A DNA stretch of 64,000 bases from Escherichia coli O157:H7 (GTDB lineage: Bacteria; Pseudomonadota; Gammaproteobacteria; Enterobacterales; Enterobacteriaceae): the NCBI RefSeq assembly GCF_013167455.1, contig NZ_CP038328.1. One strand, given 5' to 3'. Shown piece after piece: positions 42,001-48,000 of the stretch (position 1 is its first letter; every line of letters begins with the position of its first letter). The position numbers are program-made.

Positions 42001-45000
42001 TGTCGCGTCAGATCCGGTCTTTCCACACCGTCTGGATATTACAGAATTCGTGTAAGCCGAAATGGGAAAGCTCACGACCAAAGCCACTCTTTTTCACGCC
42101 ACCAAAGGCCACTCGCGCGTCGCTGGCACAATAACCATTGATAAACACCCCACCGCATTCCAGACGTGCCGCCATCTGTCTGGCCTGTGTTTCGTCGGTG
42201 GTAAAAATGGTCGCTGAAAGGCCGAACTCACTATCATTAGCCAGTTCCAGCGCATGTTCTGCATCTTTCGCAATGGTGATTGCCGCAACGGGGCCAAACA
42301 TTTCTTCCCGAAAAGCGGTCATTTCTGGGGTAACATTCGCCAGAACCGTTGGCGGATAGTAGTTACCTGCCCCAGCCATCTTTTCCCCGCCCAGTAACAA
42401 ACGCGCACCCTGCGCCAGGGTTTTCTCCACCTGATGATGCAGCTCATCACGTAAATCGAAACGAGCCATTGGTCCGAGAGCGTTCTCTTCGTCACGGGGA
42501 TCGTCCATTTTCAAGGCTGCCGCAGCTGCCACAAAACGTTCGGTAAATGCCGAAGCAATTCCCTCTTCGATAATAAAGCGTTTTGCCGCTGCACAAACCT
42601 GTCCGGTATTCTGATAACGTCCGGCTACCGCCGCTTTAACTGCCAGTTCCAGATCGGCATCGTTAAGCACAATAAATGGATCCGAACCGCCCAGTTCCAG
42701 TACGCATTTTTTCAGTGCCGCTCCAGCCTGTGCCCCAATAGCCGCTCCAGCACGAACACTTCCGGTCACCGTGATAGCAGCAATGCGCGAGTCTTTAATC
42801 ATCTGAGTGACACCGTCATTGTCGGCATTCAGCCAGCCATATACGCCTTGTGGGATTCCCGCATCTTTAAACACCTGGGCAATGAGCTGAGCACAGCCCA
42901 TCACATTCGGCGCATGTTTAAGTAAGTATCCGTTACCAGCAAGAATGATGGGAACAGCGCCACGCATCACCTGCCATAACGGAAAATTCCACGGCATAAT
43001 CGCCAGAATCGTCCCCAACGGTCGATACTCAATAACTGCCTGCTGATTTTCCACCAGCGTAGGTTCCGCCTTCAGCATTGCCGGACCATGTTCTGCATAC
43101 CAGTCACACAAATTCGCCGATTTCGCCACTTCAGCGCGCGCCTGGTTGATTGGTTTGCCCATTTCGCGGGTGATCATTTGCGCCATTTCTTCGCTACGGG
43201 CGCGCAGAGCCTTACCGATATCACGCAGTTTTTCAGCACGATAATCTATATTTGTCTCGCGCCAGTCACGAAAGCCTGCTGCCGCCAGCTGAAGTGCGTT
43301 TTCGATATCATCAGCGCCAGCCCACGGCAACACAGAAAGTTGTTCACCCGTGGCAGGATTTATCGAAATTGCATGAGTTGCCGGAGTAATGGTCATCGGG
43401 GTATCTCCTTTATGAGTCATGGTATGAAGATACGCAGATTTACTCTTGCTTTAAAATGAATAATATTAAGCCACTTATTCACGAATCGAGAATATTATGG
43501 ATCTGACCCAACTGGAGATGTTCAACGCGGTTGCCGAAGCTGGCAGCATTACGCAGGCTGCAGCAATAGTGCATCGCGTGCCGTCGAATCTCACTACCCG
43601 TCTACGCCAGCTGGAAACAGAACTGGGGGTAGATCTGTTTATTCGCGAGAATCAGCGTTTACGTCTATCTCCTGCCGGGCATAACTTTTTACGCTATAGC
43701 CAACAAATTCTCGCGTTAGTGGATGAAGCGCGGAGCGTTGTCGCTGGCGATGAGCCGCAAGGTTTATTTTCTCTGGGTTCGCTGGAAAGCACCGCAGCAG
43801 TTCGCATTCCGGCCACGCTGGCGGAATTCAACCGTCGTTATCCCAAAATTCAGTTTTCACTTTCCACCGGCCCTTCCGGCACTATGCTGGAAGGTGTGCT
43901 GGAGGGAAAACTTAATGCGGCGTTTATTGATGGACCCATTAACCATACTGCCATTGACGGGATACCGGTATACCGCGAGGAGCTGATGATCGTCACGCCA
44001 CAAGGTCATGCGCCAGTAATCCGTGCCAGTCAGGTTAATGGCAGTAACATTTATGCCTTCCGCGCCAATTGTTCGTATCGTCGCCACTTCGAGAGCTGGT
44101 TTCATGCTGACGGTGCCGCTCCGGGAACTATCCATGAGATGGAGTCTTATCACGGAATGTTGGCCTGTGTGGTCGCAGGAGCAGGTATTGCGCTTATTCC
44201 GCGCTCTATGCTGGAAAGTATGCCGGGGCATCACCAGGTTGAAGCGTGGCCGTTAGCTGAGCAATGGTGTTGGCTAACAACCTGGCTGGTCTGGCGTCGT
44301 GGTGCGAAAACGCGTCCGCTCGAGGCATTTATTCAACTACTGGATGTGCCTGACTCGACAAAACAGGGTTACCAATGAGCTATTTTTGATAGTTCTTGCG
44401 GCTAATATGCTCTATATAGTGATGTTCCGATGACTTATGACTATATGGGGCAAATATGGTTACGCCAGTAAGCATCAGCAATTACATATCTCTTCCTGAT
44501 GATTTTCCCGTTCGTAATATTGCACCGCAGGTAAAAGAAGTTTTAAAGGATTTTATTGATGCACTTAGTACAATAATATGTAATGAAGAGTGGGCACGTC
44601 TTTAAACATCAACTCAGCCACAAAAAAGATATTTAATAATCTTGACAACTTATCATATATTCAGAGGACTTCTTTTCGGGGTAACGACACGCTATACAAT
44701 GAAAAGGTTCAGTTTAAACTCACTTATCCCGCCAGGAATGGAAGACACAAAGAAAATATTGAATTTCAGGTAGTAATAAATTTAAGCCCTATTTATTTAG
44801 ATAATTTCCGCCATGATGGAGAAATTAATATTTTTTGCGCTCCCAACCCAAAGCCTGTTACTATGGGGCGCGTATTTCAGACCGGCGTCGAGCGTGTGCT
44901 CTTTCTGTTTCTGAATGATTTTATTGAACAATTCCCAATGATCAACCCTGGCGTTCCCATCAAAAGAGCGCATACACCACATATTGAACCCCTGCCTCCG

Positions 45001-48000
45001 GATCACCATACCGCTGCAGATTACTTACGCCAGTTTGATTTGCTTGTCCTGAATTTTATCTCTCGCGGTAATTTTGTCATACTCCCCCGATTATGGAATA
45101 ACTCTGAGGTTCACAGATGGTTCGTCAATAAAGATCCTAACTTGATCACCGCCATTCTCGACATAACGGACAGCGAATTAAAAGAGGATTTATTGCAAAG
45201 CCTGATGGATTCATTAGGTTCTAACAAACATGTACTACCCTAAGTCTGCATCTGTTTTTTATCCCTTTTAGCAGAACAAGAATCTCCTCATTTTCAGGAC
45301 TTGTTTTTATTTTTCGCCAATATGTTGTTACACTATCACCAATTTATGAATCCCAATGAAAGTGATTTGAATGACGTGTTGATGCCAGCATCATTAAGTG
45401 ATGATAAAATTATCAAACATATGGCGCGTAAGACCCTCAAACTGTTTGTAAAAAATGAAACACCGCCAAAAGTTACTCATGAAGATCTGGTGAAAAACAG
45501 GCCTCGCTCCCCTGTCAGACCGCCTATACCCGCAACCTCCAAAACGCCAGACATTCCTGATCGTCATTAAACCGTGATGTTTACCATCTCTCTGACGCGT
45601 GAAAGAATCAGCGTCAGAGAAACGGAAAACGCGATCCAGATCACAAATGCATTGTATTCACATCATTAACCGTTTTAAGATCATTTCATCACTTTTTCGC
45701 AACTCACCCGATAATCTGTTATGACAACAAACACTGTTTCCCGCAAAGTGGCGTGGCTACGGGTCGTTACGCTGGCAGTCGCCGCCTTCATCTTCAACAC
45801 CACCGAATTTGTCCCTGTTGGCCTGCTCTCTGACATTGCGCAAAGTTTTCACATGCAAACCGCTCAGGTCGGCATCATGTTGACCATTTACGCATGGGTA
45901 GTAGCGCTAATGTCATTGCCTTTTATGTTAATGACCAGCCAGGTTGAACGGCGCAAATTACTGATCTGCCTGTTTGTGGTGTTTATTGCCAGCCACGTAC
46001 TGTCGTTTTTATCGTGGAGCTTTACCGTTCTGGTGATCAGTCGCATTGGTGTGGCTTTTGCACATGCGATTTTCTGGTCGATTACGGCGTCCCTGGCGAT
46101 CCGTATGGCTCCGGCCGGGAAGCGAGCACAGGCATTGAGTTTAATTGCCACAGGTACAGCACTGGCAATGGTATTAGGATTACCTCTCGGGCGCATTGTG
46201 GGGCAGTATTTCGGTTGGCGAATGACCTTCTTCGCGATTGGTATCGGGGCGCTTATTACCCTTTTGTGCCTGATTAAGTTACTTCCCTTACTGCCCAGTG
46301 AGCATTCCGGTTCATTGAAAAGCCTCCCGCTATTATTCCGCCGCCCGGCATTGATGAGCATTTATTTGTTAACTGTGGTGGTTGTCACCGCCCATTACAC
46401 GGCATACAGCTATATTGAGCCTTTTGTGCAAAACATTGCGGGATTCAGCGCCAACTTTGCCACGGCATTACTGTTATTACTCGGTGGTGCGGGCATTATT
46501 GGCAGCGTGATTTTCGGTAAACTGGGTAATCAATATGCGTCTGCGTTGGTAAGTACGGCGATTGCGCTGTTGCTGGTGTGCCTGGCACTGCTGCTACCTG
46601 CGGCGAACAGTGAAATACACCTCGGGGTGCTGAGTATTTTCTGGGGGATCGCGATGATGATCATCGGGCTTGGTATGCAGGTTAAAGTGCTGGCGCTGGC
46701 ACCAGATGCCACCGACGTCGCGATGGCGCTATTCTCCGGGATATTTAATATTGGAATCGGGGCGGGTGCGTTGGTAGGTAATCAGGTGAGTCTGCACTGG
46801 TCAATGTCGATGATTGGTTATGTGGGCACGGTGCCTGCTTTTGCCGCGTTAATATGGTCAATCATTATATTTCGCCGCTGGCCAGTGACACTCGAAGAAC
46901 AGACGCAATAGTTGAAAGGCCCATTCGGGCCTTTTTTAATGATTCGTTTTAATGATTTCCAGGATGCCGTTAATAATAAACTGTACACCCATACATACCA
47001 GCAGGAACCCCATCAAGCGGGAGATCGCTTCAATGCCACCCTTGCCCACCAGCCGCATAATTGCGCCAGAGCTGCGTAGACTTCCCCACAAAATAACCGC
47101 CACCAGGAAAAAGATCAGCGGCGGCGCAACCATCAGTACCCAATCAGCGAAGGTTGAACTCTGACGCACTGTGGACGCCGAGCTAATAATCATCGCAATG
47201 GTTCCCGGACCGGCGGTACTTGGCATTGCCAGTGGTACAAAAGCAATATTGGCGCTGGGTTCATCTTCCAGCTCTTCCGACTTGCTTTTCGCCTCCGGTG
47301 AATCAATCGCTTTCTGTTGCGGAAAAAGCATCCGAAAACCGATAAACGCGACGATTAAGCCGCCTGCAATTCGCAGACCGGGAATCGAAATGCCAAATGT
47401 ATCCATCACCAGTTGCCCGGCGTAATACGCCACCATCATGATGGCAAAGACGTACACCGAGGCCATCAACGACTGACGATTACGTTCGGCACCGTTCATG
47501 TTGCCTGCCAGGCCAAGAAATAACGCGACAGTTGTTAATGGGTTAGCTAACGGCAGTAACACCACCAGCCCCAGGCCAATTGCTTTAAACAAATCTAACA
47601 TTGGTGGTTGTTATCCTGTGTATCTGGGTTATCAGCGAAAAGTATAAGGGGTAAACAAGGATAAAGTGTCACTCTTTAGCTAACCTTGCATCGCATTGAC
47701 CAAAACTTGAACCGATTTAGCAAAACGTGGCATCGGTCAATTCATTCATTTGACTTATACTTGCCTGGGCAATATTATCCCCTGCAACTAATTACTTGCC
47801 AGGGCAACTAATGTGAAAAGTACCAGCGATCTGTTCAATGAAATTATTCCATTGGGTCGCTTAATCCATATGGTTAATCAGAAGAAAGATCGTCTGCTTA
47901 ACGAGTATCTGTCTCCGCTGGATATTACCGCGGCACAGTTTAAGGTGCTCTGCTCTATCCGCTGCGCGGCGTGTATTACTCCGGTTGAACTGAAAAAAGT

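Follow-up and report, generated by a model that had tools for sequence, protein, structure and literature searches.

Two lesions of apparently different age in the yneK locus of an Escherichia coli O157:H7 genome

Is yneK in this Escherichia coli O157:H7 genome a gene or the remains of one, and, if the latter, in what order was it broken? The question is raised by positions 44456–45570 (plus strand) of a 64,000-nucleotide stretch taken from RefSeq assembly GCF_013167455.1 (contig NZ_CP038328.1), the whole of which we refer to here as ‘the window’. A preliminary description of this DNA had taken the locus for a yneK pseudogene with two lesions, a view that pairwise alignment with the K-12 gene supports. 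We see, in addition, that the two lesions appear to differ in age; a nonsense codon shared across the O55:H7/O157:H7 lineage, and a single-base deletion private to this one sequence.

That the locus is yneK, and not an intact copy of it, is beyond doubt. Annotated yneK is matched by window positions 44380–45640 in 5,417 of 5,426 complete E. coli genomes (megablast), and K-12 yneK (b1527; UniProt P76150; WP_000258599.1) is an orthologue in the same position, 97.8% identical in DNA sequence across this region. The K-12 DH10B copy is 1116 bp long and encodes an uninterrupted ‘putative protein YneK’ of 371 amino acids, located between ptrR (yneJ) and ydeA; an order common to the window, K-12, the O157 and O55 strains, and an Escherichia allele of just 68% identity. 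The NCBIfam equivalog model NF033404 (curated cut-off, 40 bits) matches K-12 YneK from end to end with 813.7 bits. In the window the same profile is divided between three fragments, all above the cut-off, which take up its positions 1–47 (92 bits, E = 3.5e-26), 48–262 (478.7 bits, E = 1.1e-143) and 264–371 (208.8 bits, E = 1.2e-61), and no single open reading frame (ORF) of about 371 codons spans the whole profile. These matches, together with the alignments to K-12 and O157 alleles and the RefSeq annotation of the orthologous position, delimit a locus of 1115 bp, as compared with the 1116 bp (371 codons) of the intact gene.

Aligning the window copy with K-12 and with two O157-type alleles reveals exactly two disabling differences, and no further insertion or deletion inside the gene. 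At the first of these, one C of codon 47 (CGC, Arg; gene column 139) is missing between positions 44593 and 44594; the context, TGG[C]GCA, presents two flanking G residues and no homopolymer, and the 30-mer GTAATGAAGAGTGGGCACGTCTTTAAACAT is the sequence carrying the deletion allele. Starting from the native ATG at 44456, codons 1–46 remain in frame, after which translation would run out of frame through A-R-L (…E-E-W-A-R-L-stop) into a TAA at 44603–44605, yielding a 5′ fragment of 49 amino acids (44456–44605) in place of the roughly 50 codons estimated beforehand. The body of the gene resumes as a 217-codon ORF (44590–45243) that holds YneK residues 48–262 and is listed with a fortuitous GTG start at 44590. 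The change of frame reported for this point thus stands, but its label of +1 does not, since a one-base deletion places the body in the −1 (= +2) frame with respect to the ATG. The deletion itself had been deduced from a span one base short of that needed for 371 residues; K-12 yneK does have the length assumed (1116 bp, 371 amino acids), and the absent base is the C at column 139. The second disabling difference, a G to T change at column 787, turns Glu263 (GAA) into the lone in-frame TAA already picked out at 45241–45243. Beyond it, a 3′ remnant (45244–45570; codons 264–371 followed by the native stop, TAA 45568–45570) is open throughout, in the same frame as the middle fragment. K-12 yneK has neither lesion and does not share this frame structure, being a single intact 371-codon ORF. 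With a frameshift following codon 46 and a TAA at codon 263 interrupting the ORF, the locus is a yneK pseudogene rather than a yneK gene; two elements of a PGAP-type pseudogene call are present, namely constrained intact orthologues and disabling lesions in the copy itself.

The TAA is widespread. An exact 43-mer surrounding it is present in 308 of the 5,426 complete genomes, with the other matching genomes all differing. Every O157:H7 record that we opened (2017C-4109, Wll001, ECP19-598 and FRIK1989) has a 1116-bp yneK that PGAP annotates as a pseudogene with an ‘internal stop’, and O157:H7 EDL933 (NZ_CP008957.1) has the same allele. This O157-type allele is identical to the window copy apart from one base: the O157:H7 RefSeq copies have one lesion, whereas the window copy, at 1115 bp, additionally lacks the C of codon 47. 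O55:H7 CB9615—which we take to represent the lineage that gave rise to O157:H7—has the very same TAA, and its yneK departs from the O157 allele at only two further positions. The same locus with the same GAA to TAA change at codon 263 is therefore found in FRIK1989 (ORM95_RS06565), ECP19-598 (JG531_RS14105) and CB9615 (G2583_RS09660) as well as in the window and, as the TAA is identical in CB9615 and O157:H7, the nonsense mutation is older than the O55:H7/O157:H7 split and was inherited from the common ancestor. On the timescale of the gene it nevertheless still looks recent: K-12 and O157 alleles are separated by 16 synonymous and six non-synonymous differences in addition to the nonsense codon, giving a ratio of non-synonymous to synonymous substitution rates (dN/dS) of 0.10, with no sign of long relaxed selection. 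A query with the G restored, standing for the intact ancestor of the O157 allele, was matched at 100% in no genome. The pseudogene status of yneK in the O157:H7 lineage is already recorded in RefSeq; we found no description of it in the literature, and the literature matches to a ‘yneK’ of Bacillus subtilis concern an unrelated gene.

The deletion has so far been seen in this sequence alone. A 111-bp query centred upon it has a gap-free match in none of the 5,426 complete genomes, the closest 320 each matching at 99.1% with one gap. An exact look-up of the deletion-derived products (49 amino acids, or 217 with a V or M start) came back empty from a catalogue of 153 billion gene positions, in which the ordinary 262-amino-acid O157 product, our positive control, occurs in 19,867 blocks; similarly, a metagenome scan for the deletion junction returned no contigs, and the wild-type 31-mer used as its control returned 17. 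Over 24 kb the window is the same as many O157:H7 genomes save for the gap in yneK, and against the closest genome, FRIK1989, 62,852 bp can be aligned with one mismatch and one gap—the latter being the yneK deletion, where FRIK1989 retains the C. As the window is otherwise near-identical to FRIK1989, which lacks the deletion, this would make the deletion the last event at the locus, with the nonsense mutation coming first and the frameshift later. The single mismatch lies at 42734, within sad (succinate-semialdehyde dehydrogenase; 42008–43396, minus strand), where the window has C and both FRIK1989 and ECP19-598 have A; it is synonymous, lies 1.9 kb from the yneK deletion and, that deletion aside, is the one private difference in about 63 kb.

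We consider it very likely that the yneK of this O157:H7-lineage strain was inactivated in two steps, the inherited TAA being followed by the private deletion as a matter of neutral decay. The G to T change, which converts Glu263 from GAA to TAA, took place in the ancestor shared by O55:H7 and O157:H7, at the cost of 109 C-terminal residues, and the TAA is carried by every descendant that we examined. One C of codon 47 would then have been lost in the window strain alone; a step that is plain in the sequence, and presumed for the organism. Translation from the native ATG should now end after 49 residues, as compared with residue 262 were there no frameshift, and functional YneK is probably not made from the locus. 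In a gene that had died beforehand, a second lesion would have been free of cost, and thus neutral. Nothing points to a new function for the fragments.

What is new in this history is confined to the private single-base deletion: a recent and trivial mutation, or else an error of base calling. It is possible, although we think it the less probable case, that the missing C reflects an error of sequencing or assembly, the strain then having the standard one-lesion (TAA) pseudogene of O157:H7. Such an error would sit well with the retention of the C in FRIK1989, the closest genome, and with the absence of the deletion from every other genome, gene catalogue entry and metagenome contig that we searched. 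At an error rate of 1e-5 to 1e-6 per base in finished genomes we would expect, by our estimate, 0.06–0.6 such errors in 64 kb, and one indel in 63 kb lies within the residual error of many such genomes. A number of points do weigh against a two-step history: the deletion, one of just two private differences, is the sole indel found in about 63 kb, and could be a residual consensus error; it is known from one assembled sequence alone; and loss of function in the window strain is something that we infer. Saying this, long-read and pyrosequencing indel errors mostly occur at homopolymers, of which TGG[C]GCA has none; the remainder of the window is free of indel noise; and the other private difference, at 42734, is plausible as a real synonymous single-nucleotide polymorphism. 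Random errors would, moreover, be expected to fall mostly in intact genes, whereas this indel falls in an already defunct gene, a setting that tolerates real indels and in which sister strains have acquired them. On balance we judge the deletion to be a real, recent and private mutation in an already dead gene, and hold this to be probable; in either case the yneK locus would remain a pseudogene.

A further possibility is that the gene still works, by means of ribosomal frameshifting, stop-codon readthrough, or separate translation of its fragments (by reinitiation at GTG 44590, for example). The native sequence is kept in the middle and 3′ fragments, and GTG 44590 lies just inside the end of the 49-codon ORF, an overlap that makes coupled reinitiation physically possible. 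The shift site, however, reads GAG TGG GCA CGT, in which we do not find a slippery heptamer of the form X XXY YYZ, and the shift is conserved in no relative among the 5,426 genomes; the pairing of slippery site and conserved shift that marks a programmed frameshift is thus missing from this locus. Two independent recoding events would also be required, the second of them at TAA, the stop codon at which E. coli terminates most efficiently, and sister strains have acquired further, different frameshifts as expected in the absence of selection. We regard continued function as very improbable. More improbable still is the idea that yneK is a chance ORF in AT-rich DNA in every strain, which would leave the word ‘pseudogene’ empty of meaning. 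Its G+C content is 39%, against 51–53% in the neighbouring genes, the trough being confined to yneK itself; no Pfam domain scores above threshold (best, DUF1140, E = 0.16); a profile built from eight homologues found no relative in the PDB; PADLOC gave no match, and PHROGs gave matches only at E > 0.06; an AlphaFold model from the eight-sequence alignment, with a mean predicted local distance difference test score of 42.6 and a predicted template modelling score of 0.31, was too poor for a fold search; and about half of E. coli genomes have a disrupted copy. Against this, pairwise dN/dS between four Escherichia alleles is 0.10–0.16 over dS of up to 1.3 (0.01–0.12 for the flanking ptrR and ydeA), values that contradict a chance ORF. 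Alleles with 84% and 68% protein identity also keep an ORF of 371–380 codons in this position, flanked by the same genes wherever the contig is long enough to see them, and a curated NCBIfam equivalog model exists. Intact yneK is therefore a real gene under purifying selection, and it is for this reason that the term pseudogene has meaning in the window.

In the literature yneK is uncharacterised and confined to E. coli and Shigella (PMC11540155, PMC12757027), and an NtrC site identified by SELEX (systematic evolution of ligands by exponential enrichment) has been reported between yneJ and yneK in K-12 (PMC8743547). On one E. coli-like contig from a gut metagenome (L012:179-1294 compared with L001:1577-2692), yneK has a dS of 0.58 and 84% amino acid identity to K-12, the adjacent ydeA having a dS of 0.20. 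That yneK is so much more diverged than ydeA on this contig suggests either that its allelic lineages are old or that recombination has affected yneK alone.

The gene has been broken many times over. From an evenly spaced sample of genomes we opened six alleles, picked for region lengths other than 1261, and all six are flagged as ‘frameshifted’: five have lost one T from a run of six at gene positions 377–382, and the sixth has a 2-bp and a 1-bp deletion elsewhere. The exact 39-mer containing the shortened T5 run is present in 1,084 of the 5,426 genomes. In another 1,184 genomes the match covers less than 80% of the query, of which the ones sampled keep only the first 161 bases, or some 100 bp of the gene; in E2348/69 the remnant of about 100 bp is annotated as partial. 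Taken together with the 308 TAA genomes, these bring the number with a disrupted yneK to at least 2,576 of 5,426 (47%), with no fewer than five kinds of lesion having arisen independently. Pseudogenes of other lineages (O103:H2, T6 to T5; OkiPb01678, 2-bp and 1-bp deletions; the E2348/69 type, a large deletion) are inactivated copies of the same gene with their lesions at other positions, and share neither the deletion nor the TAA of the window. Truncated products are also evident in the protein catalogue, as clusters of 217, 246, 258, 259 and 288 amino acids (P0016, P0012, P0009 and P0011 among them).

Closer to the window are copies in which the TAA allele has lost a further single base upstream of its nonsense codon. 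A product of 126 amino acids, called when the 5′ part of yneK is disrupted, occurs in 113 catalogue blocks, and the two types that we retrieved are explained by loss of C274 (Logan assembly SRR34320024, with 22 similar contigs) and of A299 (PV15-279, AP018488.1); both resemble the window copy, with deletions at gene positions 274 and 299 rather than 139. Because other strains of the lineage thus carry different secondary 1-bp deletions, secondary decay of the O157-lineage pseudogene appears to be recurrent.

Could repeated inactivation of yneK have been adaptive rather than neutral, with loss in the O55:H7/O157:H7 ancestor contributing to the ecology of the lineage? Disruption of at least 47% of copies by five or more lesions, despite purifying selection on the intact gene and its sharply AT-rich, fast-evolving sequence, might be read in this way; a pangenome study has also associated a yneK cluster with adherence to bovine recto-anal cells, on uncorrected P values only (PMC11540155). 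We think an adaptive explanation unlikely. Were it true, YneK would carry a cost, or be a target, in certain niches, and the deletion in the window merely the afterlife of that event.

Neutral, two-step decay remains our preferred account, and as such the finding is one of ordinary gene decay. For annotation, it means that a pipeline should call the locus a pseudogene with two lesions, and not two or three short hypothetical ORFs. The deletion, if real, distinguishes this isolate from its near-twin FRIK1989, as a private marker of potential use in strain tracking; if an error, it flags one base for correction. More widely, yneK is uncharacterised, specific to Escherichia and under purifying selection, and yet about half of sequenced E. 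coli have a broken copy; this is mildly interesting to those who work on the orphan gene, but no new phenomenon is involved.

Both syntenic anchors of the locus are intact, as judged from the ORF list and the annotation of the orthologous locus: upstream, the LysR-type regulator ptrR (yneJ; 43497–44378, plus strand) and, downstream, the L-arabinose exporter of the major facilitator superfamily (MFS), ydeA (45721–46911, plus strand). A scan of the locus gave six promoter-like sites, against 4.2 ± 1.9 in shuffled sequence, and no terminators; as a terminator-like site is absent between yneK and ydeA, a polar effect on ydeA is conceivable. Positions 43400–46000 have no Rfam match at E ≤ 1.

Elsewhere, the window contains a 6.7-kb Tn5393-like transposon (17766–24467), an insertion relative to ECP19-598, which comprises a Tn3-family transposase, a resolvase, IS1133 and the streptomycin-resistance genes aph(3'')-Ib (strA) and aph(6)-Id (strB). 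Its target is an autotransporter pseudogene of the ECSE_1600 family that was already frameshifted, and FRIK1989 alone of the 5,426 complete E. coli genomes shares the element at this site. At positions 62853–64000 the window departs from FRIK1989, which has copies of IS256 and IS66/ISEc8 there, but still matches ECP19-598; the window strain would on this basis be a close relative of FRIK1989, the two assemblies not being the same. In O157:H7 genomes and, by alignment, in the window (around 12973–14082, minus strand), hipA has an N-terminal truncation and hipB is missing, with O55:H7 CB9615 having an intact hipBA toxin-antitoxin pair at the corresponding place. Lastly, ydfJ (around 61181–62464), an MFS transporter of the MHS family and a further decayed gene of the window, is annotated in orthologous O157:H7 loci as an N-terminally truncated pseudogene, and adjoins prophage-derived genes encoding DinI-like and DUF1076 effector-like proteins.

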